DNA from: an uncultured Candidatus Saccharibacteria bacterium
GTDB lineage: Bacteria > Patescibacteriota > Minisyncoccia > Phycocordibacterales > JACOZG01
Length of the DNA stretch: 64,000 bases
Direction: 5' to 3'
Assembly (NCBI GenBank): GCA_964448295.1
Contig: CAYUVV010000004.1
Span: 945 to 64,944, forward strand
Made by a program: the position numbers and the translations under genes. Within the stretch, counting starts at the first letter, position 1, and each line of letters starts with the position of its first letter. Positions 19,542 through 62,678 of this stretch are shown here, piece by piece. A model generated the notes under the pieces. The model had not been told where the DNA came from and did no database searches. It worked only from the letters and a program-made list of their open reading frames with translations.

Positions 19542-19922
19542 ATGATGGAAATAAATTGGCCGTTGTTTATAGATGTGATACTAAAAATTGGATCACTCGG
19601 AGGTTTGGCAAGTATTATTTGGAATATTTTTCTATATAAACAAAGCAAAAAATACAATAAGTGGGAAGCAGAAATGTTACTGAAACAACAACAGATTGAG
19701 TGGGAAAAAATGCAGAGACAGCACAGATCGGAATACGAGGATATAGAAGTATTACATGGTAAATTCAGCGGAGAGATGAGAAACTTAAATAATAAACACG
19801 CATGGGAAGAGCGAGCTTTTTTCAACAAAAGTGAGTACTTATCGAATCTTGCTGGTCATAAACCCACTATCTTTTTGAAAACCTCTTTTCTAAAAAGTAT
19901 ATGGCGAAGGATTTTTAGATGA
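19542..19922 (+). CDS. Hypothetical protein (N-terminal TM helix, charged coiled-coil tail) in a strongly AT-rich segment
   Basis: The ORF is 126 aa and starts immediately after the tRNA-Asn. Local GC is far below the window average, and the ORF may not be expressed. Confidence 0.3.
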   Translation: MMEINWPLFIDVILKIGSLGGLASIIWNIFLYKQSKKYNKWEAEMLLKQQQIEWEKMQRQHRSEYEDIEVLHGKFSGEMRNLNNKHAWEERAFFNKSEYLSNLAGHKPTIFLKTSFLKSIWRRIFR

Positions 19923-40416: not shown

Positions 40417-41793
40417 GTGTTTGAGAGAAAGAAGGAGGACGCTCTCGGCGTGACGATTGCTTTTCACGGCGGCGCGGCCGGTTCAGTAACAGGCGCCAAT
40501 TTCTTATGGTCAAACGGTGGGCAAAAAATCTTAATTGACTGCGGCTTGTTCCAAGGGAGCCAAGTAGCGGAAGAGCGCAACCGTGCGCCTTGGCCGTATG
40601 ATCCCAAAGTTATTGATGCTCTGCTAGTTACTCATGCCCACCTTGATCATATCGGGCGAATCCCTCGTTTGGTGCGCGATGGTTTCCGCGGCCCAATTTA
40701 TTCCACCGTGCCGACGAAAGCTCTAGCCAGCTTGAGCTTAACCGACAGTCTTGGTGTGTTGGAAAAAGAGGCGCGCCGCACCGGCGCGCCTCTTGTGTAT
40801 GAAGGGGCCGACGTGGAGCGGGCTCTTGGTCAATGGCAAACGGTCGAATATCGAACGCCGCTAAAGTTGGGCGAAACCACGGTTACTTTCTACGACGCCG
40901 GTCATATTTTGGGTTCGGCGATGATTGCGCTCGATTACCACGAGCACCGATTTCTGTTTACCGGCGATTTAGGCAACTCGCCCTCGCTTCTGCTTCGCGA
41001 GACGGAGACGGTGCCCGACGTTGACTACTTACTGATGGAGAGCGTTTATGGCGATCGTCCGCACGAAGGGCGCGTCGAAAGAGCGCAGATTCTTGAGGAC
41101 GCGATTGAGGAGACGATGAAGCGCAATGGCACGCTCTTGATTCCCGCTTTTTCCATCGAGCGGACGCAGGAGATCTTGATCGAGATCGAAAAAATGATGG
41201 AACAGGGCCGGATTCCAGCCGTGCCCGTCTTTCTCGATTCGCCGCTCGCGATTCAGGTGACGGCTTTGTACAAGGAATATGAAAATTTTTTGAACGAAGC
41301 GACGCGGCGAGAGAATCGTGTGCGCGACGGCATTTTCCATTTTCCCAATCTCAAGCAAACTTTCACCACCGAGGAGTCCAAAGCAATTGGAAGAGAAAGG
41401 AAGATCATTATCGCCGGGTCGGGGATGTCGAACGGGGGGCGGATCGTACACCACGAAAAACATTATTTGCCGGACCCGGCGAGCGCCTTGCTTTTAGTTG
41501 GCTACCAATCGGTCGGGAGTTTGGGACGCCAATTGCAGGACGGCGCGCGGACGGTTAGAATTATTGGCGAGACAGTGCCCGTTCGCGCGCGCATTCTTAC
41601 TTTGTCTGGTTATTCGGCGCACAAAGATTTGCCCGGGTTGATGGATTTTGCCGAGCGGCATCGCGGGCGATTAAAGCGAGTGATGGTGGCGATGGGAGAA
41701 ACAAAGTCGGCGCTGTTTCTCGTTCAACGCTTGCGCGATTATTTGGCGCTGGAGGCCGCGGCGCCAACCGAAGGTGAGATTTTGCAATTTTGA
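40417..41793 (+). CDS. MBL-fold beta-CASP ribonuclease (RNase J / CPSF-like family)
   Basis: HxHxDH is present as THAHLDHIG. The beta-CASP region and a C-terminal RNA-metabolising MBL domain follow. Confidence 0.7.
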   Translation: MFERKKEDALGVTIAFHGGAAGSVTGANFLWSNGGQKILIDCGLFQGSQVAEERNRAPWPYDPKVIDALLVTHAHLDHIGRIPRLVRDGFRGPIYSTVPTKALASLSLTDSLGVLEKEARRTGAPLVYEGADVERALGQWQTVEYRTPLKLGETTVTFYDAGHILGSAMIALDYHEHRFLFTGDLGNSPSLLLRETETVPDVDYLLMESVYGDRPHEGRVERAQILEDAIEETMKRNGTLLIPAFSIERTQEILIEIEKMMEQGRIPAVPVFLDSPLAIQVTALYKEYENFLNEATRRENRVRDGIFHFPNLKQTFTTEESKAIGRERKIIIAGSGMSNGGRIVHHEKHYLPDPASALLLVGYQSVGSLGRQLQDGARTVRIIGETVPVRARILTLSGYSAHKDLPGLMDFAERHRGRLKRVMVAMGETKSALFLVQRLRDYLALEAAAPTEGEILQF

Positions 41794-42404
41794 AAACTGA
41801 CGATTACAACAAAATAAAAATATGTGTTTCCGGCGCGGCCGAGACGGGTCATTGTGGTCCGCGGGCGCTCGAATTGGCGGAGGCGTTAGGACGCGAGATT
41901 GTCGGCCACGGGGCGGTCTTGATTACCGGCGCGACCACCGGTTTTCCTCTTTGGGCAGCCAAGGGGGCCAAAGAAGCCGGCGGCATCTCGATTGGTCTCT
42001 CGCCGGCGGCGAGCGAGGCCGAGCACCGCGAGGTGTATAACTTGCCGGTCGAATATCTCGATTTGATTATCTACACCGGCTTCGGCTATTCCGGCCGCAA
42101 TCTGCTTCTGACCCGCTCGTCGGACGCCGTGATTGTTGGTTGCGGTCGGGTGGGGACGGTGAACGAGTTTACCGTCGCTTTTGAAGACGGCAAACCGGTA
42201 GGTGTTTTGGAAGGAGAATGGTCGACGGACGAGCTCCTGCGGGAGATGATGGAGAAAGGCTGCCGCTCAAATGAGAAGGTCATTTTTGATCCCGATCCGG
42301 CCAAGCTGGTTGGGCGAGTGCTCGCTCTGGTAGAAAAAGAAAAAGCCCAGGAACACCGCTTTTACTGCAATCCCCCCGACCCCAAATTTAAGCGGGTGCT
42401 TTAG
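41790..42404 (+). CDS. LOG/TIGR00725-family Rossmann-fold (SLOG-type) nucleotide-binding protein; TTG start overlapping the upstream stop
   Basis: The pattern ICVSGAAETG...ITGATTGFPLWAAKGAKEAGG...IVGCGRVGTVNEF is typical of the LOG/DprA-like TIGR00725 group. Confidence 0.65.
   Translation: MKTDDYNKIKICVSGAAETGHCGPRALELAEALGREIVGHGAVLITGATTGFPLWAAKGAKEAGGISIGLSPAASEAEHREVYNLPVEYLDLIIYTGFGYSGRNLLLTRSSDAVIVGCGRVGTVNEFTVAFEDGKPVGVLEGEWSTDELLREMMEKGCRSNEKVIFDPDPAKLVGRVLALVEKEKAQEHRFYCNPPDPKFKRVL
42195..42403 (+). repeat. Direct repeat A (209 bp), equal to the 3' end of the LOG-like CDS up to the TA of its stop codon
   Basis: It is base-for-base identical to 43422-43630 at an offset of 1,227 bp, by my manual alignment. 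Confidence 0.9.
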
Positions 42405-42408
42405 CCAC

Positions 42409-42437
42409 TTGCTTTTTTCCAGCTGATATGTTATACT
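42409..42437 (+). promoter_or_regulatory. Sigma70-like promoter TTGCTT (42409-42414), 17-nt spacer, TATACT (42432-42437) for the cassette ORF
   Basis: Both hexamers are read directly and lie about 70 nt upstream of the ATG at 42511. A purine-rich AAAGAAAGGA sits 6 nt before the start. Confidence 0.5.
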
Positions 42438-42510
42438 GTCGCTGGAGCCAGATTTCTCTGGCAACTGGTTCGGCAGATTCCGGAAGCACATTGTAAAGAA
42501 AGGACAAACG

Positions 42511-43245
42511 ATGAACACTATCATCGACGCAGATGCGGCCAAATTGGCTAGTTTGCAAATCGACCTGCTGCAAAAAGTGCGGCAGGGTCATGTCACCCTG
42601 GGCCACCTCGAGTGGTTCACAGGACTCAGCAGGGATGCACGCGAAGCTCTGATGGTCGGCGAAAAGCCTGCCTCACAGCCCGCACCGTCCCCGGAATCCA
42701 CGGAGAAGTTCGCACTGCTCGTTGACCTCGGCATCATCACGGTGCCCGACGACTACGACCACGCGAGCCGGCTGAAGACGTTTGGTAAGCAGAACCGCAA
42801 AAAGCTCTATTACTACAACGACGACATCACCGACACGAACTTCCCGAACCCAACTCGGGTCCTGAAGCCCGGCGACAAATTACGGGTTCAGGCCTTTCAG
42901 CAAATCGTCGACGGCACGACCACATCGGAAGAACGTATGGCCCTCCTGGCCACGCAGAAAGCGGTTCATGTCGGCGCACAGGGCGCAAGCCTCGTGTTCG
43001 ACCAGAAGCGCGACCAACTGCCGAAAGGCAAATGGTATGCGTCCTTCGATGAGAAGGATCGTCTCTGGACCGATGCCCTCGGCCGCCACAGGGTGCCGTA
43101 CTTGAACGCCCTCTCGGACGGTGACTTCGGGTTCAGCCTCGGCGACTTCGAGCTCCTCTGGCCTGCCGCCCACGCGTTCCTCTGCTTACGCGACGTCGAG
43201 CAGTCCTTGGGTGCTCAGGCACCCAGATCGTCCTTTGGGTCTTAG
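42511..43245 (+). CDS. Unknown-function cargo protein. It has an N-terminal helical region, a Pro/Ser-rich linker and a C-terminal domain of about 170 aa with no recognisable family
   Basis: The complete ORF encodes 244 aa, with the RBS-like AAAGAAAGGA 6 nt upstream. Codon preference differs from the host (gac, atc, ttc, ctg and ctc are favoured). Confidence 0.6.
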   Translation: MNTIIDADAAKLASLQIDLLQKVRQGHVTLGHLEWFTGLSRDAREALMVGEKPASQPAPSPESTEKFALLVDLGIITVPDDYDHASRLKTFGKQNRKKLYYYNDDITDTNFPNPTRVLKPGDKLRVQAFQQIVDGTTTSEERMALLATQKAVHVGAQGASLVFDQKRDQLPKGKWYASFDEKDRLWTDALGRHRVPYLNALSDGDFGFSLGDFELLWPAAHAFLCLRDVEQSLGAQAPRSSFGS

Positions 43246-43253
43246 ACCCCTTG

Positions 43254-43286
43254 AGCCCTTGCTTCACCGCGAGGGCTCATTTTTTG
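43254..43286 (+). terminator. Rho-independent terminator of the cassette ORF
   Basis: The stem pairs GAGCCCT with AGGGCTC around an 11-nt loop, followed by ATTTTTTG. Confidence 0.65.
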
Positions 43287-43421
43287 TATAATAAGCATCA
43301 GAACTTAGATAGCGCGCGCGGCTACGGTTTCGTGCCATCAGTTCTCGTGTAAGGATTAACGAGTGGTCCACCGGGTATGCCTTGTGGACGGGTGTTGCCT
43401 TGCGCGAAAAAATCAAATAAG

Positions 43422-43631
43422 CCGGTAGGTGTTTTGGAAGGAGAATGGTCGACGGACGAGCTCCTGCGGGAGATGATGGAGAAAGGCTGCCGCTCAAATG
43501 AGAAGGTCATTTTTGATCCCGATCCGGCCAAGCTGGTTGGGCGAGTGCTCGCTCTGGTAGAAAAAGAAAAAGCCCAGGAACACCGCTTTTACTGCAATCC
43601 CCCCGACCCCAAATTTAAGCGGGTGCTTTAA
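43422..43631 (+). pseudogene. Direct repeat B: a duplicated 3' fragment (last 69 codons plus stop) of the LOG-like gene, not an independent gene
   Basis: It is 100% identical to 42195-42403. The ORF at 43377-43631 in the track merely extends this fragment upstream into cassette sequence. Confidence 0.85.
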
Positions 43632-43634
43632 GAT

Positions 43635-43979
43635 TTACTTCACCGCCGTGATGATTTGGTCGAAGATGGCCGGGTGGTGTTCGGCGAGCGTGGCGAGGAT
43701 TTTGCGGTCAAGTTCGATGTTTTGCTTTTTCAGCGCGCCCATAAAACGGTTGTAAGATAATCCGTGTGGCCGGACGGCGGCGTTGATTTTGATTTGCCAG
43801 AGTCGGCGGAAATCATTTTTTTTATCACGCCGGTGGGCAAAAGCGTGAACGCCGGCGTGGAGCACGGCCTCGCGCGCCGCGCGCTCTTTTTTGCTCCGGG
43901 CGAAGCGATAACCCTTCGCCAATCTTAACGTCGTGCGGCGTTTTTTTAGACTATGAACCCCCTTTTTAACTCGTGGCAT
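43635..43979 (-). CDS. rplT: 50S ribosomal protein L20
   Basis: The 114-aa product carries the L20 signature RVKKGVHSLKKRRTTLRLAKGYRFARSKKER. Confidence 0.9.
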   Translation of the reverse strand: MPRVKKGVHSLKKRRTTLRLAKGYRFARSKKERAAREAVLHAGVHAFAHRRDKKNDFRRLWQIKINAAVRPHGLSYNRFMGALKKQNIELDRKILATLAEHHPAIFDQIITAVK

Positions 43980-45489: not shown

Positions 45490-45831
45490 TCAATTTCTGG
45501 CCGTCAACTTATCTCTTACCCAGTCGTCTAGTTTTGGTCCGTAACAGGTCTCGATGGCCGCGGGTAAGCCAATCTCATTGGCGAGATCGGTGATATCCAC
45601 TACTGGTATCCCTTTCGCTTGGCGAATCACCACGTCTGCCATGCACCAATCGGTGATAACTAAATTGTCGTCCGATATCCCACAATGGAGTGTCAACCCC
45701 AAGCCAATACTGGGTTCGGAGAAGGTTTTAATAAAATCCGGTTTGAAAACCTTGCTCCAGATCGGATCGCCGAAAACAAGTCCAACACAAAAACAATTGA
45801 TTTGCGGGGGCATTGTTCCTAACTCGATCAT
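45490..45831 (-). CDS. Hypothetical small protein; the start is taken at the internal Met (MIELGT...), as the upstream part of the ORF is AT-rich
   Basis: It is an ORF of about 113 aa. I recognise no family for it. Confidence 0.35.
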   Translation of the reverse strand: MIELGTMPPQINCFCVGLVFGDPIWSKVFKPDFIKTFSEPSIGLGLTLHCGISDDNLVITDWCMADVVIRQAKGIPVVDITDLANEIGLPAAIETCYGPKLDDWVRDKLTARN

Positions 45832-45995
45832 CGTTTCTCTCCTTTTTGGGGTCCTTGAAATCTGCCTAGCATAGTAAACCTTTTGTTTAATTTTGTCAAA
45901 CTTTTTTGGTTTTAGATGATTGGGGATAAATATCGTTTTTTTGTGCCCAATATACTGTAAAATTTGGCTTGAGTTTATCAATTTATTAAGTATTT

Positions 45996-47120
45996 ATGAA
46001 ATTAAATAAAATTTTTGCGGTTTTTTTATCCGTCGCTTTGGTTCTCATCGGCGCGACGACGACCTATGGCCAAATTACGGGGTATGAGGTGGTTACCAAA
46101 AATTTCTCCGGCCCGGGTGGTTCGTCGGCGCAAGCCTCTTGCCCGGCTGGTAAAGTGGTGGTTGGCGGGGGTTGCGAACTGTATGCGACCACTGGTGGCG
46201 CGACCCTGAAGGATTCTTATCCATTTACCTCACCGACCTCGGTTGGCAATGGTTGGGCCTGCCGCTGGAGCAATCCGTCTAACGCCGCCGGCCGAACGGC
46301 CTACGCCATCTGCGCGGATGGAAGTAACATAGGCTCTGTTGGCCCATGTTTTGTGCCTTTGTGCCCCAACGGCAATACCATAGCGACGAATTGTTCTAAT
46401 TCTCCAAATAGTGACGATGGTATGCTGTGCGGCGGAAATCCCCCAACCTTGTGTCCCAACAGTCATACGGTTGCTACTAACTGTACTTTACCGCCAGGCA
46501 GTGATGATGACAGCGACGGTGCCGCCATTCCCACCATCATTTCTTCCAACCCGCCGAATGGGGCAATTATCGCCCAGAATACATCCGACGTCGTTAACGA
46601 GTTCGGTGTAACTTTTTCTCGCCCTCTTGATTCTTTGTCTGCCAAACAATTTACTGTCTCCAGCTCTGGTGCTAATAATTCAGTCTCCCTTGTGAGATGG
46701 GCTGTTGGCTCCAACTATGCGCTGTCTCTGTCGAACCCCTTGTCTCCGGGTGAAAGGATCACGATCAGTTTCGCGCCGTCTGGTCCGTTTGCCTGCCTCG
46801 GTTATCTCCCCGGCGATGTCAATCAATCCGGGACGACGAATGTGCAAGATCTGACGGCACTGAACAATTGTATTAACAGTCAAAACTGCCAGTTGTGGCA
46901 GGCCGATATTAACCGCGACGGGGCCGTTAACTCAAATGATATAACCACTCTGCTCGGATTGATGAACGGCAGTATTGGCGGCACCAAATGGCTGAACAAA
47001 ACCTTGCCTGCTTGCCCGGCTGGTTCGGTGGGTGTGGTTCCCATGCAAACGCAGACGGCCTCCGTCTTTCCGGCGCTCAACGGTTTTCTTAACGGTCTCC
47101 GCGGCGCATTGGGTCGGTAA
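45996..47120 (+). CDS. Secreted Cys-rich protein with two C-terminal dockerin-like (EF-hand-type) repeats
   Basis: It has a signal peptide and repeated CPNGNTIATNCSN / CPNSHTVATNCTL modules. The dockerin-type repeats read GDVNQSGTTNVQDLTALNNCI and ADINRDGAVNSNDITTLLGLM. Confidence 0.6.
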   Translation: MKLNKIFAVFLSVALVLIGATTTYGQITGYEVVTKNFSGPGGSSAQASCPAGKVVVGGGCELYATTGGATLKDSYPFTSPTSVGNGWACRWSNPSNAAGRTAYAICADGSNIGSVGPCFVPLCPNGNTIATNCSNSPNSDDGMLCGGNPPTLCPNSHTVATNCTLPPGSDDDSDGAAIPTIISSNPPNGAIIAQNTSDVVNEFGVTFSRPLDSLSAKQFTVSSSGANNSVSLVRWAVGSNYALSLSNPLSPGERITISFAPSGPFACLGYLPGDVNQSGTTNVQDLTALNNCINSQNCQLWQADINRDGAVNSNDITTLLGLMNGSIGGTKWLNKTLPACPAGSVGVVPMQTQTASVFPALNGFLNGLRGALGR

Positions 47121-48222: not shown

Positions 48223-50124
48223 ATGCCGTTTGATATGACCTCGCGCGCGAAACCGGGAGCAGTCTGGGGCAAGTTCGGCGGCCAGTTATTGACGGCCGTT
48301 TTGGTTCTGCTTGTGCTCGCCAACCTCTATTCCTTGTTTGCCGGTGAGAAATCGGAGATTAAAGAAATCGCCGTTTCAGAACTAGCTACGGCGGTGGAGC
48401 GGGGTGAGGTGGAAAGCATCAACGTTAAGGGGTTACGTTTTAACGCCATTCTAACGGACGGGAGCGAGCGGCGCGGCCAAAAAGAGTCGGAGACTCCACT
48501 TTCTGCCACGCTCGTGCAATATGGCGTTACGCCGGAGCGTTTGCGATCCGTTCGGCTCACGGTGGAGGGGGAAAGCGGTTTCCAGTTCTGGCTCTTTAAT
48601 CTTTTGCCGTTTGTTTTGCCGATTATTTTTATTCTGGTCCTCTTTTGGTTTATTTCCCGCCAGGTACGCGGGGCGAGTATACAGGCCTTTTCTTTCGGCC
48701 AATCGCGGGCGCGAGTGATTGATCCGGCTGATACCAATCAACGCGTTACTTTCAAAGACGTAGCCGGCGTGCGCGAGGCCAAGGAGGAGTTGCTCGAGAT
48801 TGTTGATTTTCTCCGGAATCCCAAAAAATTTTTAGACATCGGGGCGCGGATTCCCAAGGGGGTGCTTATGATGGGCGCGCCGGGTACCGGCAAAACACTT
48901 TTGGCGCGGGCGGTGGCGGGGGAGGCGCGCGTGCCTTTTTTCTATCTTTCCGGCTCGGAGTTCGTCGAGATGTTTGTGGGGGTTGGCGCTTCACGCGTGC
49001 GTGATCTTTTCAAAATGGCCAAGAAGGCGGCGCCAGCGATTGTGTTTATCGATGAGATTGACGCCATTGGTCGGCATCGCGGTTCTGGGATGGGTGGCGG
49101 CAACGACGAGCGCGAGCAGACCTTGAACCAAATTTTGGTCGAGCTCGATGGCTTTGAGCCGACGGAAAAATTGATTGTGATAGCCGCCACCAATCGACCC
49201 GACGTGCTCGATCCGGCTTTGCTGCGCCCCGGTCGCTTCGATCGTCGGGTGGTGCTTGATAAGCCCGATCTCCGCGATCGGGAAGACATCCTCAAGATTT
49301 ACGCCGCCAAAAAGCCGTTGGCCGAGGACGTTAATCTTCGTGCTCTCGCCGAACGGACGCCAGGATTTTCCGGCGCGGATCTGGCCAATGTGATGAACGA
49401 GGCGGCTATTTTGGCCGCCCGCGAGAATCGTAAACGTGTGGCGCAATTTGACCTCATCCGTTCAGTGGAGAAGGTGATGCTTGGGCCGGAGCGCCGGAGT
49501 CATATTCTCTCCGAACGAGAAAAGAAGATTACGGCTTACCACGAGATCGGCCACGCGCTCGTCGCCTCGGTTTTGCCTCATGCCGACCCGGTGCGCAAGG
49601 TTTCCATCATCTCGCGCGGTCATGCCGCTGGCTACACCCTTAAATTGCCGTTTGAGGATAGAAAGTTGCAATCGCGCAAAGAATTTTTGGACGATCTCGC
49701 CGTATCGCTCGGCGGCTATGCCACCGAGCTTTTGGTTTTTGACGATTTAACGACGGGGGCTTCTAACGATCTGGCGGTGGCAACCAATTTGGCGCGGGAT
49801 ATGGTGGCGCGTTATGGAATGAGCGAGAAATTGGGCCCCGTTTCCTACGAGCCGGAGCCTGGCCGTCTCGCTTTGAGCGGCGGTGTTTTGCCCGAGCGCT
49901 ACAGCTCGGAAGCCAGCGCCGCCTTGGTGGATGCCGAAGTGGCGCGGTTGATGGCCGAGGGCTTGGCCCGTGCGCAAAAAGTATTAAACGAACGCCGAAT
50001 GGCGCTCGAGCATCTAGCGGAAGAACTAATCCGGGTGGAGACGATCGAGCAGGAAGAATTTGAAAAACTACTCACCTTGCACGGCGTAAAAATCAAAACC
50101 CGCGAACCAAAACCGGATGCGTAG
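48223..50124 (+). CDS. ftsH: ATP-dependent zinc metalloprotease FtsH
   Basis: Two N-terminal TM segments are followed by an AAA domain ([17 protein letters not shown]; SRH region), the zinc-binding motif HEIGHAL and an M41 peptidase C-domain. Confidence 0.9.
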
Positions 50125-50186
50125 CTCAATGGTAGAGCTCCCGTCTTATACACGGGTGGTTCCAGGTTCGAGTCCTGGCGCATCCA
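50115..50186 (+). tRNA. tRNA with anticodon TAT (decodes AUA, Ile); no encoded CCA
   Basis: I folded it manually. The acceptor pairs GGATGCG with CGCATCC. The D arm is GCTC/AATGGTA/GAGC. The anticodon stem CCCGT/ACGGG encloses the loop CTTATAC. The T arm is CCAGG-TTCGAGT-CCTGG and the discriminator is A. It overlaps the last 10 nt of ftsH. Confidence 0.7.
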
Positions 50187-53953: not shown

Positions 53954-55060
53954 ATGAAAAAAGTGCTTTTTTTTGGGCCAACATTTTACAATCTGTCTTT
54001 CGTTGATCCGGCGTTGAGAACCAAATTTTCTGGATTAAATAAAATCTGCGAGATTCACGTAATGGCTCGTGGTTTGGGTTGGAGGGCGCAAAAATATGGA
54101 GTTTTATTCTGGCTGACACCAAAAAAATATGGTTTTGCGTTTTGGCTAGCTGCCAGTTTTTTTCGGAGCTGGTTGATAATCGTTAGGAAAAAAATTGATG
54201 TTATCGTGGCCCAATCGCCCGCGTTTGATGGAATGATTGGGGTTTTTTTAAAAATTCTAACAGGCTGCCGTTTAGTAGTGGAAGTGCATGGCGACTGGAT
54301 CGAAAGTCCATTTTTATACCACAAAATCCTTTTTCCAAAATTTTTTAGATTACTGCTAATTTTAAGTGGCAAATTTTCTTTGCGACAGGCGGACAAAATT
54401 CGAACCATCTCACAGTTTACCGAAGATCTTGCCAACAAATATGGTGGTCGAGATAAGCCGAAATGTTGTTTCCCCACTTTTACCGATATCAGTAAATTTT
54501 TAGAGGGTGGTGTTTGTAATAATCTCGTCGGACTCAATATTTTATATGTAGGAGTTTTGTACCGCTTAAAGGGGGTACATTTTTTAATCCGGGCATTGAG
54601 CAGAGTGCGTCTTCGACACCCAGAAGTAAGTTTAAATATAATCGGTGACGGTCCGTATCGTTCGGAGTTAGAAAATTTAGTCAAAGAACTTAATTTGGGC
54701 GGTGTAAAATTTTTCGGGCAACTCCCATCAGACGAAGTTGTAAAACGAATGAGGGACTGCAGTGTTCTAGTTTTGCCTTCTTTGTCTGAAGGTCTTGGGC
54801 GAGTGTTAATAGAAGCGGCGGCGGTGGGCAAGCCAGTAGTTGGTAGTCGGGTTGGCGGCATTCCGGAGGTAATAGAAGATGGGCAAACTGGTTTTTTGTT
54901 TCCTCCGGGCGATGTGTCGGCCTTGGCCTGTAAATTGGAGTGGGTTTTTGATCATCCCAAGCAGGCTAAATTGATGGGAGAAAGGGGCAGGAAGTTAGTT
55001 GAAGAGCGCTTTTCCACTCAAGCGTATTTTCGATCTTTTAAGAACTTAATCGAATTTTAA
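53954..55060 (+). CDS. Glycosyltransferase family 4
   Basis: The C-domain reads EGLGRVLIEAAAVGKPVVGSRVGGIPEVIEDGQTGFLFPPGD. Confidence 0.8.
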   Translation: MKKVLFFGPTFYNLSFVDPALRTKFSGLNKICEIHVMARGLGWRAQKYGVLFWLTPKKYGFAFWLAASFFRSWLIIVRKKIDVIVAQSPAFDGMIGVFLKILTGCRLVVEVHGDWIESPFLYHKILFPKFFRLLLILSGKFSLRQADKIRTISQFTEDLANKYGGRDKPKCCFPTFTDISKFLEGGVCNNLVGLNILYVGVLYRLKGVHFLIRALSRVRLRHPEVSLNIIGDGPYRSELENLVKELNLGGVKFFGQLPSDEVVKRMRDCSVLVLPSLSEGLGRVLIEAAAVGKPVVGSRVGGIPEVIEDGQTGFLFPPGDVSALACKLEWVFDHPKQAKLMGERGRKLVEERFSTQAYFRSFKNLIEF

Positions 55061-55065
55061 TTTTT

Positions 55066-56004
55066 ATGAATCTTTTGATTTTAACCCAGGCTGTTGATAA
55101 GAAAAACCCTATTCTTGGTTTTTTTCATCGCTGGATAGAGGAGTTTTCCAAAAATTGCGAACATGTAATTGTGATTTGCTTGGAAAGCGGCGAGTTTGGC
55201 TTGCCAGCTAATGTGCGAGTTTTGTCTTTGGGTAAAGAAACCGGTTGTTCCCGACTTAAATATCTCTGGCGGTTTTATAAATATATACGGCAGGAGCGTC
55301 AAAACTATGACGTGGTGTTTGTGCACATGAACCAAGAATATGTACTTTTAGGCTGGAAATTTTGGAGACTCTGGGGAAAAAAAATTTGGCTTTGGCGCAA
55401 TCACGCCTATGGCAATTTTTGGACGAGATTAGCGGTGCGGTTATCAGATCGTGTGTTTTGCACTTCGCCCCAGTCTTTTACCGCTCAATTTAAAAAAACC
55501 GAATTGATGCCGGTTGGTATTGATACTGATTTTTTCTGCCCAGATTTAGCCGTTACCAAGAAGCCCCATTCGGTGCTTTTTTTGGGACGGATATCGCCTG
55601 TAAAACGAGCATTGGAGTTTGTTGAATGGTTTACTGGTTTAAGTAACGACTTTACTGCGACTATCGCTGGCGTTGTCATGACTAAAGATCGGGAATACGA
55701 ACGGGTTTTGAAACTCAAAATTAAAAAACTTAGGATTGAAAATCGAATAAAATTTTTTGGGGTACTTAGCCAACAAGAAGCGCGAACTCTGTATTGCTCG
55801 CATGAGCTTTACGTCAATTTAACCCCCGCCGGTAGCATGGATAAGACAATTCTGGAGGCGGCGGCTTGCCAGACTAGGGTTAAAGTTGAGAATTCACACC
55901 TTAAACATTTAGAATTGTTGGGCGGTGAAGATCTTAGGAGGTATGTGGTCGAAAATCACAGTTTAAAGAAGCTGGTCAAACGATTATGCTGTATCGTGGC
56001 ATAG
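55066..56004 (+). CDS. Glycosyltransferase-like protein (GT-B, divergent)
   Basis: The GT1/GT4-like N-domain is MNLLILTQAVDKKNPILGFFHRWIEEF. It is embedded in the glycosyltransferase cluster. Confidence 0.5.
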   Translation: MNLLILTQAVDKKNPILGFFHRWIEEFSKNCEHVIVICLESGEFGLPANVRVLSLGKETGCSRLKYLWRFYKYIRQERQNYDVVFVHMNQEYVLLGWKFWRLWGKKIWLWRNHAYGNFWTRLAVRLSDRVFCTSPQSFTAQFKKTELMPVGIDTDFFCPDLAVTKKPHSVLFLGRISPVKRALEFVEWFTGLSNDFTATIAGVVMTKDREYERVLKLKIKKLRIENRIKFFGVLSQQEARTLYCSHELYVNLTPAGSMDKTILEAAACQTRVKVENSHLKHLELLGGEDLRRYVVENHSLKKLVKRLCCIVA

Positions 56005-56795
56005 TATTTGTTTTTAAAGAGCTTGTTTGGTTTACGTGTCGGCTGTTGGCTCCATCTCTGGCCAATAAAGCGTGCATCCTTATGTATCACTCTGTGTCTG
56101 ACAGAAATAACGCATTTTTTACAGTTACTCTCGAAAATTTTGAGAGACAGCTAGCATGCCTGAAAAAGAGTTCAAAAAGGGTAGTGTTTCTTAGCGATTT
56201 AATCAAAATGATTATTGAGGGGGAATCGATTGGGGATTGTGTTGTGCTGACTTTCGATGATGGTTATCGCGACAATTATGAGATTGTTTTCCCCATGCTC
56301 AAAAAATATAATTTTAAGGCTTCTTTTTTTATACCAACCGGATATGTTGGGCTGACAATGAAAAACTCTGAGGGAATAGTTTTACCAGTTATGAACGCAA
56401 AAGAATTGATTAAGGTCGGCTCATCGGAATTTGTCGAATGCTTGCCGCATACCCATCGTCATATTGATTTGTCAAAAAAAACAATCGATGAGTCCATGAG
56501 GGACATAAATAATTCCTGGCTACTTATAAATAATTTGCGTATCAGATCTTCAAAAATCTTGGCTTACCCAAAAGGAAAATTTTCTAAAATTATTGCAGAG
56601 AGGTTGGCTCTTGCTGGGTGGATGGGGGCGGTTACCGTTTGCTCTGGACTGGTTTCTAGCAAATCACGTCTGTTCTATTTGCCACGAAATTCAGTCGACA
56701 AAAGTACCAGCCTAAACAAATTCAAATTTTATTTGTCTGGGGGGGTGGTTTTGTGGTTAAAATGTAAGTCATGGATATGGTTTGGCAGATATTAA
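55986..56795 (+). CDS. Polysaccharide deacetylase (NodB homology domain)
   Basis: The motif VVLTFDDGYRDNYEIVFPMLKKYNFKASFF is present, followed by a His-containing motif (LPHTHRHIDL). Confidence 0.75.
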   Translation: MLYRGIVFVFKELVWFTCRLLAPSLANKACILMYHSVSDRNNAFFTVTLENFERQLACLKKSSKRVVFLSDLIKMIIEGESIGDCVVLTFDDGYRDNYEIVFPMLKKYNFKASFFIPTGYVGLTMKNSEGIVLPVMNAKELIKVGSSEFVECLPHTHRHIDLSKKTIDESMRDINNSWLLINNLRIRSSKILAYPKGKFSKIIAERLALAGWMGAVTVCSGLVSSKSRLFYLPRNSVDKSTSLNKFKFYLSGGVVLWLKCKSWIWFGRY

Positions 56796-57403
56796 AAGGT
56801 AAAACGATTTATCGCGTTTTGTTTAACCGGCTCGTAGCCAAACATTGTTTTGGTTTATCCGGGGATGTGCTTGACTTGGCTGGTGGCACCAACCCTAGTT
56901 ACCGTGAATATCTCCCATTAAAAGTGAATTTAATCGTAACTGATTTAGTGGCTGCGTCTGGGGCTGGGCGTATTGATTTAAACAAGCCGTTGCAAATTGA
57001 TTCTGGCCGATATCGTTCCGTTCTATGTTTCAATGCCCTTTATATAGTGGAAAATATGGAAGGGGTTCTTCTGGAGATGAGACGGATTTTAGCGCCAGGC
57101 GGTAAGCTTTTTATTTCTATGCCTTTTATTTCTAATGAAATGCCTGAACCCCATGATTACCGACGTCTTACTAAGGAGGGGCTAGTAATCCTTTTTCGCC
57201 GAGCAGGCTTTACAAAATTTGAAATTATGCGTTTCGGGGAAAGATTTTCTTCGGCGGCATATTTACTCCACCCTTTCTTTTTGTGTAATCCGATTAGGCT
57301 TCTGGTTTATTGCGCTTCTCTTCTACTTGATCGCATGATTCCAAAAAAGATAAAAGAACTCTATCCTACTCCCTTAGGCTATTTTTGTGTGTTATCCTGC
57401 TGA
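56771..57403 (+). CDS. Class I SAM-dependent methyltransferase
   Basis: The motif I block LDLAGGTNPSYREY and a Methyltransf_11-like core are present. Confidence 0.6.
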   Translation: MDMVWQILKGKTIYRVLFNRLVAKHCFGLSGDVLDLAGGTNPSYREYLPLKVNLIVTDLVAASGAGRIDLNKPLQIDSGRYRSVLCFNALYIVENMEGVLLEMRRILAPGGKLFISMPFISNEMPEPHDYRRLTKEGLVILFRRAGFTKFEIMRFGERFSSAAYLLHPFFLCNPIRLLVYCASLLLDRMIPKKIKELYPTPLGYFCVLSC

Positions 57404-58062
57404 CTGCCATGTTGGGTAAAAGAGGTATTGAGCAGGTTTATGATTATCACCATACTCATGCTAGGAGGAAAAAGCACGTTATTTTTTCTGAAGCGCGCGG
57501 GGCTTTGCTGAGAGAACACGTTGGTTTGGGTAAGCGGGTTTTGGATATAGGTTGTCGAGATGGCGCACTGACAGCGTTATACTGTGAAGGTAACAACATT
57601 CTCGGTGTCGATATCGATAGCCGCGCCCTAGAAATCGCAGAACAAGACTTGTCCATTAATACCCTTCATCTTGATTTAAATGAATCTGATTGGAATTTGG
57701 ATCAAGGTGTTTTTGATCGGGTTGTGGCTGGTGAGATACTCGAGCATTTATATTATCCGGATAAAGTAATTGGTCGAGTCGCTAGTGTGCTGAAACCTGA
57801 TGGTAAATTTGTCGGCTCGGTGCCCAACGCTTTTAATATAAAAAATCGATTTCGGTTATTGTTGGGACAAAAGCAAAATACTCCCCTGTCTGACCCCACT
57901 CATATTAACCATTTTACAAGAGAAGAGTTAAGGAAGGCACTTCTCGTCCACTTTAAAAAGGTAGAAATTATTCCCATTGGTCGTTGGTCTAAGTTTGATT
58001 TTTTTTGGCCAGGAATGTTTTCTTTCAGTTTGTTTTTTGTTGCTCAAGAGAAACGATCATGA
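57385..58062 (+). CDS. Class I SAM-dependent methyltransferase
   Basis: Motif I is VLDIGCRDGALT and the acidic motif is ILGVDID. Motif IV-like VAGEILEHL follows. Confidence 0.7.
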   Translation: MCVILLTAMLGKRGIEQVYDYHHTHARRKKHVIFSEARGALLREHVGLGKRVLDIGCRDGALTALYCEGNNILGVDIDSRALEIAEQDLSINTLHLDLNESDWNLDQGVFDRVVAGEILEHLYYPDKVIGRVASVLKPDGKFVGSVPNAFNIKNRFRLLLGQKQNTPLSDPTHINHFTREELRKALLVHFKKVEIIPIGRWSKFDFFWPGMFSFSLFFVAQEKRS

Positions 58063-59135
58063 AGGTGGGTATTTTTATGCATCCTTACGGAGAGTCGAAG
58101 CCAAGTGGTTTGGGGGTGTTTGGATCAAATTTGGTGAGCCGCATAATCAAGGAGGATGCGGATACCGAGTATGTGCTTTTGGTTAGAGAAGCTCCCAGGG
58201 TCAAGCCTGTTTTTGCTCTTGGTTGTCGGGAGATCGTTTTAAATAAAAGCTTTGCTCGACTTAGTTCCAGGGAAATTCGGTCATACGGGCTTGACCGCTG
58301 CCTGTTTTTAACGCCGGTCTTGCCGCTTTTGGCAAAACTTCCTCCGACGATCGTGGTCGTTCATGATTTGGCGTATCGAACTGTTCCATCGGAATCGTGG
58401 ATTGATTTTTTGTATAAACTAGTTTTTCACTGGATCTATTTTTTCTCTACACACAAGGCGTCTGTTGTTGTCGCTGTATCCGATGCCACCAAGCAGGATG
58501 CGGTTAAGGCTTGGCGATTAAAAGCAGATAAAATAAAAGTTATATACAACGGTCCAAGCGGTATACACAAACTCCCTCCAAAACTTGTTCAAGTTAAGCG
58601 ACCATACTTTCTGTTTGTCGGCGTGTTTAAGCCTCGGAAAAATGTGCTAAAAATTGTTGAAGAATTTGGGCGTTTTAAAAAAAAAATAAGATCGGACTTT
58701 AATTTGGTTCTGGTCGGAGCGGCAAATGGCCGGTATGCCAAGAGAGTCCGTTCTCTTATAAAGGAAGCCGGTCTTACCGACTCAGTCTTTTTATTGGGTT
58801 ATAGAAGCGAGGAAGAGCTTTCTTATTTATATCGTAACGGCTATGCTTTTTTGTATCCCAGTATGGGCGAGGGTTTTGGGGTAACAGTTTTGGATGCTCT
58901 GTCGTGTGGTCTTCCTTGTGTTGTCTCACGAATCCCAGTTTTTCAGGAATTGTATAAGGGGGTTGCGTTGGTGGTAGATGAAAATTCTTTTGCAGCGAAC
59001 ATGGAACGTTTAGCTACTGATACCAATTTGCGCAATAAACTGGCAGCGACTTCGCAAAAATTTTCTTTTAATTTTTCTTGGAGTAAATCAGCGCGTCAGA
59101 TGATCGAGCTGATTCATCGGGACTATGGACATTAA
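58005..59135 (+). CDS. Glycosyltransferase family 4 (the start is probably MKVGIFMHPY, near 58059)
   Basis: The C-domain reads PSMGEGFGVTVLDALSCGLPCVVSRIPVFQE. Confidence 0.75.
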   Translation: MARNVFFQFVFCCSRETIMKVGIFMHPYGESKPSGLGVFGSNLVSRIIKEDADTEYVLLVREAPRVKPVFALGCREIVLNKSFARLSSREIRSYGLDRCLFLTPVLPLLAKLPPTIVVVHDLAYRTVPSESWIDFLYKLVFHWIYFFSTHKASVVVAVSDATKQDAVKAWRLKADKIKVIYNGPSGIHKLPPKLVQVKRPYFLFVGVFKPRKNVLKIVEEFGRFKKKIRSDFNLVLVGAANGRYAKRVRSLIKEAGLTDSVFLLGYRSEEELSYLYRNGYAFLYPSMGEGFGVTVLDALSCGLPCVVSRIPVFQELYKGVALVVDENSFAANMERLATDTNLRNKLAATSQKFSFNFSWSKSARQMIELIHRDYGH

Positions 59136-60285
59136 AAACAAAAGGATTTGTTTTTTCCTCTCGTCGTTTCGTGCTGGCGGTGGCGAGAAAGTTATGGTGG
59201 AGTTGGCTAATGCTTTCGCCGGGCGAGGTTATGATACCGACTTGGTGGTAATCAAGCCAATAGGCGAGTATCGTCGGTGTGTTTCTAAGGCGGTGAATGT
59301 GGTGTCGGTCGATGGCGGAAGAATAATTTTAAGTTTGCCGCGCATGATTGCGTACATGCGTCGTCGACGCCCCAACGTGATTATTGGTTTAGATGAGTTT
59401 ACTCACCTTATCGCTCTTATTAGCAAGTTTGTGGCAAGAACCAAAACGAAAATTTTTCTACGCGTAGGAAATATTTATTCGATATTATATGAAAGACATC
59501 GACAAGAGGGTCGAATGGTTATCCCAGCAATTTCAAAATTGATCTACAAATATGCCGATCACGTTATTGCTAATTCTCGCGGGGTAGCCGACGACCTAGT
59601 GAAAACGGTCAGTCTTACTAAACCACCGATTGTAATCGGCAACCCTAAACCTCTTAAGGTTATTGAGCAAAAATCTGGTCAATTTGTTGATCATCCTTGG
59701 TTTATAAATAAAACCAAGCCAATTATTGTTGGTGTGGGGCGACTAAGGGCGCAAAAAGATTATCCGACCCTGATTCGTGCATTTGCCCGCCTAGTAAAAG
59801 AGTTACCAGCGGTGTTGGTAATAATTGGTTGCGGCCGTGAAGAAAAAATTATCAAGAAAACAATTATTGAATGCGGCGTTGAAAACAGCGTTTGGCTTGC
59901 AGGATATCACGATAACCCATATGCCCTTGTTGCCCGGTCTGATGTTTTTGTTCAACCTTCATTGTGGGAAGGACTACCCAACGCCCTTTTGGAAGCAATG
60001 GCGGTGGGGGTGGCTGTGGTTTCTTCTGATTGCGAAGCTGGACCAAGAGAAATATTGGCCCCCGATACTGATATTCACAAACATCTTTTGCCTAATATAG
60101 ACTCTTATTATAAAGCTGAGTACGGGGTGTTATTTCCTGTAGGTGATGAACGGGCGCTGTTTGGGGCACTCAAGGAGCTTGTTGTTAACCAGCAATTAAG
60201 GGCGGAATATTCCAAGAAGGGGCGACTGAGGGTTTCTGGTTTTGATACAGAGATTATTGTCGATAAGTACGAGGCGTTATTCTAG
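59125..60285 (+). CDS. Glycosyltransferase family 4
   Basis: The C-domain reads PSLWEGLPNALLEAMAVGVAVVSSDCEAGPREIL. Confidence 0.8.
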   Translation: MDIKNKRICFFLSSFRAGGGEKVMVELANAFAGRGYDTDLVVIKPIGEYRRCVSKAVNVVSVDGGRIILSLPRMIAYMRRRRPNVIIGLDEFTHLIALISKFVARTKTKIFLRVGNIYSILYERHRQEGRMVIPAISKLIYKYADHVIANSRGVADDLVKTVSLTKPPIVIGNPKPLKVIEQKSGQFVDHPWFINKTKPIIVGVGRLRAQKDYPTLIRAFARLVKELPAVLVIIGCGREEKIIKKTIIECGVENSVWLAGYHDNPYALVARSDVFVQPSLWEGLPNALLEAMAVGVAVVSSDCEAGPREILAPDTDIHKHLLPNIDSYYKAEYGVLFPVGDERALFGALKELVVNQQLRAEYSKKGRLRVSGFDTEIIVDKYEALF

Positions 60286-60291
60286 CTTATT

Positions 60292-61395
60292 ATGAAGTTG
60301 TTGTATGCCACCTCAATAATTTACCCCTCATTATATGCCAACCGGAAACAAGTTCTGTCAATGGCGCGAGAATGGACAAGGAAATTAGGGATCAATTTTA
60401 TTTTAGGCTGCTCTAATATTGATGTTAGTTTGGGGGACATCAATTATCTAAATTTTAGAGGTAGTAGGCGTAGCCCGATTTTGGCTTGGAGGTACGTTTT
60501 TTTTGCTCGAACGAATGGCATAACTCATGTGTATTCTCGAGAGGAGAAACTTTTGGGTTGTATGATGCTTATTGATAGGTTTTTACCAGGCCGAAAATTA
60601 TTGTTTGCTTACGAGGCGCACTCGATTCCGCTCCGCCACTCTTGTTTATATTTATTTATGATTCGGTTTGTTTCTCTGATAGTAGTGGTTACAGAAAGAA
60701 TGAGAGCTGAATTTATCAAAATGGGGATTAGCCCGCAAAAAATTCGAACGGAGCATGACGCGGTGGATTTGAATTTGTTTAGTTTTAAAACGTCGAAGCG
60801 AGAGGTGCGGGAAGAGCTAGCTCTGTGCCCGAATGATTGGGTCGTAGGCTATTTTGGTCGATTCCAGACAATGGGAATGGAAAAAGGAGTTCCGGAAACT
60901 TTGTTAGCGGTAAAAAGACTTACGTCTGCTGGCAAGCGCGTTTTTTTTATTGGTGTGGGTCTCAGAGACAGAGAGTTGCCACATTATCAAAAGATTGCGA
61001 AAGAATTGGGCGTATTTGACCACGTTAGATTGATTGGTTATTTGCCCCAAGAGGAAGTTCCCCGATATCAGTGTGCCTGCAACGCTTTGTTGCTTTTGTT
61101 TCCCAGAACTGCCCATTTTGAAAAATACATGTCTCCATTAAAGATGTTTGAATACATGGCCTCAGGAATTCCTATCATTGCAACAAGATTACCTTCTATA
61201 GAAGAGGTCCTGGATAACAAATCGGCATATTTTGTTGATTCTCTTGGCCCAGAATGTGTTGCCGAAGCAATAATTCGAGTTTGTCAAAATCCGGCCGAAT
61301 CTTTTTTAAAAGCGCGCAAAGCTAGGGAAAGGGTTACGTATTATACTTGGAGTAAGAGAGTTGAGCGAATTACCCATTACCTTAACAATCTATGA
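60292..61395 (+). CDS. Glycosyltransferase family 4
   Basis: A GT-B C-domain is present with an E-x7-E-like segment (LKMFEYMASGIPIIATRLPSIEEVL). Confidence 0.65.
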   Translation: MKLLYATSIIYPSLYANRKQVLSMAREWTRKLGINFILGCSNIDVSLGDINYLNFRGSRRSPILAWRYVFFARTNGITHVYSREEKLLGCMMLIDRFLPGRKLLFAYEAHSIPLRHSCLYLFMIRFVSLIVVVTERMRAEFIKMGISPQKIRTEHDAVDLNLFSFKTSKREVREELALCPNDWVVGYFGRFQTMGMEKGVPETLLAVKRLTSAGKRVFFIGVGLRDRELPHYQKIAKELGVFDHVRLIGYLPQEEVPRYQCACNALLLLFPRTAHFEKYMSPLKMFEYMASGIPIIATRLPSIEEVLDNKSAYFVDSLGPECVAEAIIRVCQNPAESFLKARKARERVTYYTWSKRVERITHYLNNL

Positions 61396-62678
61396 ATTTG
61401 CGCACTCTCTTTGCCCGTCCAGTGCTGGGTCTGTGTTCTTTAATTTCAGTCTTGTTGTTGGGTAGACATCGGAGGCGGGTTGATGATCCAAAAAAGGTAG
61501 TGATCTACCAGTTGGCGAAACTTGGCGACATGGTTTGCACCACGCCAGTATTTAGAGCGATCAAGAATAATTATCCGGAATCAAAAGTAATCGTTGTTGG
61601 TAATAGTCAAAATGAATTATTGCTTGCGGGCAACAAGGATGTTGATTTCTACATTAAATTTGTAGGTATTTGGTCCACAATACGAATCATCCGTAAATAT
61701 CGAGCTGATTTTGGAATTATCACGTCTCCTAATATTGTCGGGCTCTCGGTTTTAGTTCTTGGGGGTGTTCGCGCTATAGCCGGTTTTAGTATTGTAAGCG
61801 GTAGCGTTTACGAAGACATTTGGTACAAATCAATGAGGCCGTTTTTCCATGTTTTCCCATACCATTTTGGAGAATATGTGCCCGGGGCGTATTTGTCGTT
61901 GCTGAGGCCGCTGGGCATAAACTCAACCAATACCAAAAAATATCTAACTTATTCCGAGGAGGCCGATCAGCGTATAAACAAAATTTTCTTTGATATGGGC
62001 ATTTTGAACGGGATTCAGAAGGTGGCAATTCTTCCTGGTGTAGGAAATAAGATTAAGCGTTGGCCGGTAGAGCGGTTTGCTGAACTAGCCTTGAAAATTG
62101 TGAGGCATTGCAACGCGCAGGTTTTGATTTTTGGTGGCAAACGCGATGCTGATGAGGTGTTGGCTTTGCGTTCGTGCCTCCAGCACAGAAAAAATATTTT
62201 TTACATAGACACAGAAATGACCATTGATGAACTCAAGTGCCTTATTGCACATCTGGATTTGTTGATCTCTGTTGATTCAGGACCTATTTATATCGCTGAA
62301 TCTTTTGGGGTGGCTACTGTTGACATAGTTGGTCCCGTTGATGAAAGGGAGCAACCGCCAATTGGCCGGTATCATCGGGTAATTGTTCCGTCTCGTAAGC
62401 AAGCCGAAGTTCATATTATGGATACTAGAACATTCGATATAAATGAGGTTACTCGTCAAATTAACTCTATTTCCGTTCGGGCTGTTTATAAGGAGGTCGT
62501 TGCCCTACTGCGCATTTTGCCGCGATTTAAAGAGAACAAACAACAGAACAGAATCAAAAATTTGACTTACAATAATAGCTATCACACCCCCCATGATACC
62601 AATGCTGGGAATCATGCTTACCAAAAGAATAATTTTAACAACCGGCGAGATAATCAGAAAAATACTACTTTGTTTTAG
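61392..62678 (+). CDS. Glycosyltransferase family 9 (heptosyltransferase-like), with a low-complexity Asn/Gln-rich C-terminal tail
   Basis: The N-terminus VVIYQLAKLGDMVCTTPVFRAIKNNYPESKVIVVG is typical of GT9 ADP-heptose transferases. Confidence 0.65.
   Translation: MNLRTLFARPVLGLCSLISVLLLGRHRRRVDDPKKVVIYQLAKLGDMVCTTPVFRAIKNNYPESKVIVVGNSQNELLLAGNKDVDFYIKFVGIWSTIRIIRKYRADFGIITSPNIVGLSVLVLGGVRAIAGFSIVSGSVYEDIWYKSMRPFFHVFPYHFGEYVPGAYLSLLRPLGINSTNTKKYLTYSEEADQRINKIFFDMGILNGIQKVAILPGVGNKIKRWPVERFAELALKIVRHCNAQVLIFGGKRDADEVLALRSCLQHRKNIFYIDTEMTIDELKCLIAHLDLLISVDSGPIYIAESFGVATVDIVGPVDEREQPPIGRYHRVIVPSRKQAEVHIMDTRTFDINEVTRQINSISVRAVYKEVVALLRILPRFKENKQQNRIKNLTYNNSYHTPHDTNAGNHAYQKNNFNNRRDNQKNTTLF

Follow-up and report, generated by a model that had tools for sequence, protein, structure and literature searches.

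What does the 244-residue protein encoded at positions 42511–43245 of the window do, and how did its gene come to stand between two host genes? The window is a stretch of 64 kb from a Candidatus Saccharibacteria contig (CAYUVV010000004.1); it constituted the part of this genome examined. An earlier note, made from the sequence, had described the open reading frame (ORF) as a two-part protein of no recognisable family and had proposed that it is phage or defence-island cargo. Our analysis leads to a different answer: the gene very probably encodes the variable protein of a Patescibacteria-specific clade of diversity-generating retroelements (DGRs), carried in a truncated and orphaned cassette. 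The features of the locus are collected in Table 1.

A retroelement target family in Patescibacteria

The ORF lies on the forward strand, opens with ATG, and its peptide equals the one quoted in the earlier note. Profile searches with the protein gave no significant match in Pfam, PHROGs, PADLOC or NCBIfam; the sole Pfam match was to DUF3756 and was not significant (E = 0.23). The absence of a recognisable family thus holds for the curated profile libraries. It does not hold further than that, because the protein has at least 480 homologues among Patescibacteria proteins at E ≤ 0.001, a lower bound on the family size, and a role as a DGR target can be identified for them. The best 120 matches are 60–79% identical over the full length (~94% of the length). 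All homologues are annotated as hypothetical and are devoid of Pfam domains, and the named sources are metagenome-assembled genomes of Patescibacteria/Paceibacterota.

The genomic contexts of the homologues differ from locus to locus, and the recurring partner is a template repeat (TR) together with genes for Avd and a reverse transcriptase (RT). On a 600-kb contig (L003), a bAvd gene and an RVT_1 gene come after the homologue, and the last 125 nt of the homologue recur beside Avd at 85% identity. All of the mismatches between the two copies (100%) fall at adenines of the Avd-proximal copy, which is the signature of a DGR. Consistently, tblastn with the L003 RT and Avd located both genes directly downstream of the homologue in six loci (L002, L003, L012, L017, L018 and L019). 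Each of the six contains a pair of TR and variable region (VR) of 121–125 nt, and 82 of the 88 TR/VR mismatches are at TR adenines, adenine making up ~25% of the TR. Further supporting this finding, the sample was widened by 80 further metagenome loci, and the 64 non-redundant loci with enough flanking sequence were counted. TR, Avd or RT adjoined the gene in 26 of these, with mismatches almost always only at adenines; the other 38 had no adjacent TR, Avd or RT. Cognate TRs for homologues are thereby known from the six loci and from ~20 metagenome loci, and with more than 25 independent loci the adenine pattern in the relatives is unlikely to be an alignment artefact.

The same pattern is written into the protein family. 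An alignment of 82 sequences displayed eleven hypervariable columns (residues 187, 192, 197, 199, 201, 207, 209, 212, 215, 218 and 221), which hold 9–15 residue types each (2.7–3.5 bits) and alternate with nearly invariant columns. Additionally, columns 190, 203, 205, 219 and 220 vary chiefly among Asp, Gly, Val and Ala. When the TR of L002 is translated (ADGNHRVPNVNANSDGDFNWNLGNFENVWNDDNAFLCFCN), its Asn codons (AAC) coincide with the hypervariable columns and its Asp codons (GAC) with the Asp/Gly/Val/Ala columns. This matches the prediction for adenine mutagenesis, because NNC codons give 15 amino acids and no stop, and GNC codons give Asp, Gly, Val and Ala.

The window copy bears this mark as well. 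Compared with the three closest heterologous TRs of its relatives, its VR (43073–43194) differs at 18 of 31 adenine positions versus 13–14 of 91 other positions (Fisher p = 5e-6 to 1e-5), a bias that represents the footprint of past adenine mutagenesis.

An AlphaFold2 model of the protein, with the 82-sequence family alignment as input, reached a mean pLDDT (predicted local distance difference test) of 86.4 and a pTM (predicted template modelling score) of 0.68. The model has N-terminal helices at residues 7–25, 30–38 and 41–48, a disordered Pro/Ser linker at residues 52–63 (pLDDT <50), a compact α/β C-terminal domain at ~65–230 (pLDDT mostly >90) and an unstructured tail at residues 232–242. 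Sequence and model therefore agree with the helical N-terminal region, Pro/Ser linker and separate C-terminal domain that had been proposed earlier for the 244-aa ORF. As modelled with confidence, the C-terminal domain takes a divergent form of the C-type lectin fold. The match to that fold is modest: Foldseek searches of PDB and BFVD returned nothing at E ≤ 0.001, with C-type lectins among the weak matches. The C-type lectin fold is the scaffold of structurally characterised DGR variable proteins (PMC5006420, PMC6328139). The VR maps onto the last three β-strands of the model (193–200, 206–212 and 221–228), so that the model combines one of the two folds expected of a DGR target (C-type lectin, the other being immunoglobulin) with a VR on C-terminal surface elements.

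No hydrophobic segment fit for a signal peptide or a membrane anchor was found in the protein (maximum Kyte-Doolittle value over 19 residues, 1.13). This agrees with published work on Patescibacteria, which have a cellular DGR clade of their own whose targets typically contain no recognisable transmembrane or conserved domain (PMC8144416).

Table 1 Features of the locus, of its product and of related loci. Positions are those of the window unless a residue range or another locus is given
Feature	Position	Strand	Basis or remark
SLOG cluster-4 (LDcluster4 / TIGR00725-like) host gene, intact	41790..42404	+	Pfam PF18306, E=4e-35; TAG stop 42402-42404
Repeat copy 1 (R1)	42192..42403	+	last 212 nt of the SLOG gene
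Cassette promoter, TTGCTT-17-TATACT	42409..42437	+	alignment of 10 loci
Conserved 5' untranslated region	42440..42510	+	two small hairpins; AAGGA ribosome-binding site at 42500-42504; alignment A4
DGR variable (target) protein gene (very probable)	42511..43245	+	244 aa
Three-helix N-terminal domain (modelled)	aa 1-50		target protein
Pro/Ser linker	aa 51-64		target protein
C-type-lectin-fold domain (modelled)	aa 65-230		target protein
Unstructured tail (modelled)	C-terminus, 14 aa		target protein; absent from most family members
Variable region (VR)	43069..43194	+	codons 187-228; homologous to the TRs of L002, L003, L012, L017, L018, L019
Target-gene terminator	43252..43286	+	GC-rich hairpin (11 pairs) and T-run; conserved in alignments A3, A5
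Promoter of the TR-containing RNA, TTCACC-18-TATAAT	43263..43292	+	10/12 positions; TATAAT kept in intact cassettes (alignments A5, A6)
Leader RNA, 5' half (helices 1-5)	~43286/43293..43421	+	homology to L002, L012, L003, L017
Illegitimate recombination joint	43419..43426	.	AA/CGGT microhomology; alignment A3
Repeat copy 2 (R2)	43419..43630	+	duplicate of the SLOG 3' end; ancestral TAA stop 43629-43631
Leader RNA in related loci	L002:5422-5666, L003:6790-7024, L012:7546-7782		and 14 other loci; alignment A6

The truncated cassette and the fate of the window copy

To place the window copy among its relatives, we compared it with intact cassettes (L002, L012, L003 and L017). Nucleotide homology extends from ~42446 to 43426 and stops ~113 nt short of the point at which the TR starts in the intact cassettes. 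An intact cassette comprises, in order, the target gene, a promoter, a structured leader RNA of ~250 nt, a TR of ~122 nt, the Avd gene on the opposite strand and the RT gene. The window cassette breaks off in an A-rich linker of the leader RNA; helices 6–8 of the leader, TR, avd and RT are gone. At the joint, the window reads AATAAG followed directly by CCGGTAGG, compared with AATAAGTCGGTGCG in the intact cassettes and GGCAAACCGGTAGG in the SLOG gene.

The remaining part is well preserved. The claim that the gene has its own promoter and terminator was borne out, the promoter TTGCTT-17-TATACT being conserved across loci and a strong intrinsic terminator being called at 43252–43279. A consensus scan had missed the promoter because its −35 box matches the consensus at 3 of 6 positions; in the 10 aligned loci the boxes are conserved as TTGACA-like and TATAAT-like. 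Upstream of the −35 box nothing is alike between these loci, indicating that the window cassette keeps its native left end. The target gene is intact and probably expressed. The GC-rich hairpin of the terminator, itself conserved, sits 58 nt past the VR, and the 3' end of the VR, where an IMH would lie, resembles the TR/VR boundary of the family. Studies of the DGR of Bordetella phage have described a target-recognition hairpin, and by analogy the terminator hairpin may double as such an element. In the 5' untranslated region, ~60 nt are nearly invariant across loci that are only ~70–80% identical within the gene; its hairpins (GCAAGAT..TCTTGC and CCGGCAGATTTCCGG) may constitute a regulatory RNA element.

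The composition of the gene also travels with the cassette. Computed formally, the codon-bias anomaly is present: third-position GC content (GC3, 0.75) and third-position C content (C3, 0.447) are the highest among the 48 ORFs of the window (z ~2.4–2.5), and the codon fit to the window is the fourth lowest. The anomaly is therefore real; the further claim that this gene is the only one of clearly foreign composition is not, as a nine-gene block at 53954–62678 (~41% GC) and the low-GC ORFs 19542–19922 and 45490–45981 are odd as well. In 30 of 31 loci the target gene is more GC-rich than its flanks (mean +11.6 points). Its GC content stays near 55% (GC3 ~0.7), whereas the host flanks range over 33–54%, with a gene/flank correlation of 0.19, which indicates that the composition belongs to the cassette. 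Together with the presence of homologues in unrelated genomic contexts, this supports the earlier description of an inserted, compositionally foreign, self-contained unit; the cassette evidently moves among Patescibacteria.

Several observations weigh against assigning the window gene to a DGR. There is no sequence-level link between the target protein and any curated lectin-fold family: Pfam FGE-sulfatase, DUF1566 and similar lectin-fold or DGR-target families gave no match above threshold, and the family profile found no solved-structure relative among PDB sequences, only a chance match to S4 (ribosomal; E = 0.15). The 64-kb window contains no TR, Avd or RT; relaxed blastn found no TR-like match to the ORF there, and tblastn with the L003 RT and Avd, which finds RTs down to 43% identity at other loci, found neither gene. 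Finally, the copy carries F226L and C227R at near-invariant positions and a read-through tail of 14 aa, having lost the usual stop codon of the family, and these changes could reflect drift after uncoupling from the DGR.

Either a DGR elsewhere in the genome uses the window copy as a remote target, or the copy is a frozen variant. Renewed diversification of its VR would require that a matching TR be present elsewhere in the genome, with RT and Avd, and that these act in trans; otherwise the copy would be frozen. Action in trans is established for DGRs in general, on targets that are remote or not adjacent (Wu et al. 2018, PMC5758913). Within the present family, two VRs share one TR in L052, L069 and L075, with 100% of mismatches at TR adenines, and contig Ga0265297_10006310 (L045, L054) carries a copy ~11 kb from the TR, with 13 of 14 mismatches at TR adenines. 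These shared and remote VRs demonstrate diversification in trans within the target family. For the window copy, no cognate TR was found in the 64 kb, which leaves the status of remote target a possibility rather than a result.

That the copy is a frozen relic, cut off from TR, Avd and RT in a genome that holds no compatible DGR, and hence a static lectin-fold protein or a decaying gene, is a serious contender, though we lean slightly away from it. Cassettes do decay, as indicated by the 38 of 64 loci lacking adjacent machinery and by L010, where only a 20-aa Avd remnant (75% identity; L010:4252-4311) persists downstream of the target gene. The absence of DGR machinery from 64 kb, the substitutions at near-invariant positions and the lost stop codon fit the same picture. 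Set against it are the intact state of ORF, promoter, ribosome-binding site and hairpin, the trans diversification of second or remote copies seen in four contigs, and the probable extent of the genome well beyond the 64 kb seen. An orphaned DGR variable protein gene would be a fairly ordinary find for Patescibacteria genomes, in which this DGR is common.

The SLOG neighbour and the layout of the locus

The gene directly upstream encodes a SLOG cluster-4 protein, which also matches NCBIfam TIGR00725 at E = 4e-24, under the curated cut-off. The −35 box of the cassette begins (42409) 4 nt past the SLOG stop codon and 5 nt past the end of R1. The insert of ~1.0 kb is bracketed by a direct repeat (42192–42403 = 43419–43630) of 212 nt with one mismatch (99.5%, blastn), exact over 209 nt (42195–42403 = 43422–43630). 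In R2, the TAA stop lies 3 nt from the stop of a convergent gene (43635–43979, reverse strand), which we take by eye to encode ribosomal protein L20. R2 and L20 thus represent the ancestral junction, and the duplication leaves both the SLOG gene and the convergent L20 gene intact. At other loci, the repeats near the cassette are TR/VR pairs or unrelated repeats, and long host-sequence repeats are absent, indicating that the duplication is specific to the window locus. We suggest that it arose by homology-facilitated illegitimate recombination, in which the SLOG gene served as the anchor and the microhomology supplied the second joint.

Other readings of the insert and its repeat were considered and rejected. 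A transposon or integrative element was discarded: there is no transposase or recombinase, there are no terminal inverted repeats and there is no nearby tRNA attachment site. The insert's only ORF is that of the lectin-fold protein; the flanking repeat, where a transposon would leave a short target-site duplication, measures 212 nt, and a microhomology lies at one of the joints. The repeat was likewise rejected as a TR/VR pair, its copies being identical over the exact stretch, with no adenine pattern and few AAC codons. A tblastn alignment that carried SLOG similarity into 43251–43418 was judged to be an alignment extension, because this segment is 75–80% identical in nucleotides to DGR spacers. 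The joint also creates a predicted chimeric ORF of 84 aa (43377–43631, forward strand), in which 14 residues from the leader fragment are fused in frame to the last 70 of SLOG; it lies downstream of the leader promoter.

Could the layout be a product of assembly? The arrangement might result from a mixed population, in which an insert-free SLOG–L20 allele coexists with a 1227-bp circle or tandem array (insert plus repeat), or from two strains. An independent Logan assembly of SRR15237813 contains a contig of 1078 nt identical to 42374–43451. This contig is short and stops on either side after ~30 nt of the repeat, which marks the repeat as a branching node of the assembly graph, and a k-mer graph cannot separate a single chromosome (SLOG–insert–repeat–L20) from an insert-free allele with a 1227-bp circle or a mixed population. 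Perfect repeats of 209 nt would, moreover, permit pop-out by homologous recombination. However, the same contig crosses both joints by ~30 nt, and both joints therefore exist in the reads of an independent assembly. The right joint is built like a genuine microhomology-mediated event, not like a k-mer overlap, and paired reads should be able to bridge a repeat as short as 212 nt. An exact-match query with the SLOG protein, intended to reveal an insert-free allele, retrieved no record. We consider the mixed-population explanation unlikely, and the identity of the protein is unaffected by the layout question.

The SLOG neighbour had figured in the proposal that the protein acts in toxicity, immunity or anti-defence, as the cargo of a phage or defence island, and has a functional tie to the SLOG/LOG-like gene next to it. 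SLOG domains occur in conflict systems, and the foreign composition, the dedicated promoter and terminator, the variable genomic contexts and a SLOG homologue ~1.6 kb away in L094 would suit such a role. Yet neither PADLOC nor PHROG gave a match, and searches for relatives came back empty from IMG/VR (2.9 million contigs), from 50,697 phage genomes and from 72,556 plasmids. Nor is the linkage to SLOG/LOG genes recurrent: L094 is the single case among ~100 other loci, the adjacency in the window stems from an illegitimate joint, and the consistent partner of the family is TR-Avd-RT. The cargo proposal finds no support in these results and is very improbable.

It can hardly be credited that the leader promoter and fragment, together with the SLOG 3'-end copy, form a nascent TR for diversifying the SLOG C-terminus by a trans-acting RT-Avd: a copy of a gene's 3' end that follows the promoter and leader of a DGR RNA does reproduce the TR/VR geometry, but leader helices 6–8 are missing, the 64 kb contain no RT or Avd, the SLOG repeat copies show no adenine-to-N differences, AAC or AAT account for 2 of 70 codons in the repeat, and an equivalent arrangement occurs in none of ~100 other loci.

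Elsewhere in the window, the low-GC block mentioned above (53954–62678; ~41% GC compared with ~53% in the rest of the window) consists of nine co-directional genes, five of them for GT4-type glycosyltransferases, two for methyltransferases and one each for a polysaccharide deacetylase and a GT9 heptosyltransferase-like protein, and is probably a horizontally acquired surface-glycan island. A 374-aa protein encoded at 45996–47120 (forward strand) has a hydrophobic segment at its N-terminus and contains Cys-rich repeats as well as a dockerin type I domain (PF00404, E = 2.7e-9); a divergent 163-aa ORF lies beside it (45490–45981, reverse strand, GC 0.43). The window also contains a tRNA-Ile gene with anticodon TAT (UAU) at 50115–50186 (forward strand); a tRNA-Ile with this anticodon is an uncommon bacterial way of reading AUA codons. 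Among the related loci, a segment of ~500 nt just downstream of the DGR RT in L017 recurs 2.9 kb further on (L017:2771-3289 and 5672-6528, 80–93% identity) and might bracket another inserted element.

Leader RNA, proposed mechanism and known systems

The six loci with complete machinery share one architecture. As exemplified by L003:7170-8537, the target gene, leader RNA, TR and RT gene lie on the forward strand and avd on the opposite strand, and the start codons of avd and RT overlap divergently by ~10–40 nt. Because avd is on the strand opposite the TR, the RNA downstream of the TR is antisense to avd.

Between the target-gene terminator and the TR lies a structured RNA of ~250 nt, which has its own TATAAT box and ends ~20 nt before the TR. 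RNAalifold predicted eight helices with 56 pairs, 45 of which show compensatory double changes. In the alignment, 95.6% of cells are paired; shuffles give 83.1%, with none of 500 as high as the value observed, and slid partners give 34–45%; the 45 covarying pairs compare with 22 in shuffles and 11–16 with slid partners. A search of Rfam with the non-coding tail of the window and with full spacers gave no match for the leader, the only result being a sub-threshold suhB/mmgR match over the terminator. By analogy, the leader may be the element by which RT and Avd are recruited in the Patescibacteria DGR clade; for the Bordetella DGR, a preprint reports that flanking RNA segments are needed for cDNA synthesis (bioRxiv 10.1101/2023.10.23.563531). 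With its strong covariation, its absence from Rfam and its position directly upstream of the TR, this RNA of ~250 nt is possibly the more useful lead from the present locus.

In a DGR, the TR RNA is reverse-transcribed with random misincorporation opposite adenines, and the mutagenised cDNA replaces the VR of the target gene, the TR itself staying invariant. In the present family, each of ~11 AAC/AAT-type codons could then become a codon for any of 15 amino acids and each of five GAC codons one for Asp, Gly, Val or Ala; by our calculation from this codon logic, the diversity would amount to ~10^14 variants or more. The last ~35 residues (187–221; three β-strands and loops) would form the ligand-binding surface. 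The evidence shows that the protein belongs to the family, that relatives are DGR targets, that the window VR has the adenine footprint, that the fold is lectin-like and that the cassette is truncated at the joint; ligand binding, a cytoplasmic location, current activity and the route of the duplication are inferred. A more far-reaching picture can be drawn, which we hold to be quite improbable as a whole: the family would be a cytoplasmic hypervariable receptor, an antibody-like intracellular sensor in ultra-small episymbiotic bacteria, in which a DGR diversifies the lectin-fold surface, the conserved N-terminal three-helix module transmits binding to a downstream partner, copies that run from promoter to terminator, like the one in the window, lie dispersed and make up a repertoire that one TR diversifies in trans, and the leader RNA serves as the handle that recruits RT-Avd.

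With the assignment to a DGR, what had been an unknown cargo protein becomes interpretable, and there is a warning in this: foreign composition combined with a missing Pfam match does not imply a toxin or defence function. The locus provides a clean example of a target gene uncoupled from its retroelement, the cause being a microhomology joint inside the leader RNA. Orphans make up more than half of the sampled family, and some remote copies are diversified in trans, which bears on how hypervariable repertoires are gained and lost in small-genome Patescibacteria.

The Bordetella phage DGR differs in layout from the intact cassettes described here, as its RNA downstream of the TR is not antisense to avd. 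The window protein has no detectable sequence similarity to the structurally characterised DGR variable proteins, namely Mtd of Bordetella phage BPP-1, TvpA of Treponema denticola (PDB 2y3c), AvpA (archaeal) and TaqVP of Thermus aquaticus, and the fold match is modest. In contrast to theirs, its N-terminal module is a three-helix domain with a Pro/Ser linker, and compared with known variable proteins it lacks a phage-fibre, lipoprotein or FGE-sulfatase-type extension and an export signal. With remote targets such as those of Treponema and Trichodesmium (PMC5758913, PMC8867640), the locus shares a target paralogue away from the RT, and within the target family such paralogues are shown to be open to diversification in trans; the locus differs from them in that no cognate TR was found in the 64-kb window.

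The first survey of Patescibacteria DGR targets is reportedly that of Paul et al. 2017. Among the closest known systems is the cellular DGR clade of Patescibacteria, or Candidate Phyla Radiation (CPR), designated 'clade 2' (Roux et al. 2021, PMC8144416), which has the same host group and a cellular rather than viral location. Its targets are likewise short, with the VR at the extreme C-terminus and with no signal peptide, transmembrane segment or recognisable domain, and its partners are the same TR, Avd and RT that were seen in the relatives of the window protein. The window copy departs from this clade in being a truncated cassette, without a TR, Avd or RT of its own and flanked by a duplicated end of a host gene. 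For DGRs of the CPR, one target is usual (PMC5758913); differing from that generalisation, some of the Patescibacteria DGRs described here serve two target copies.

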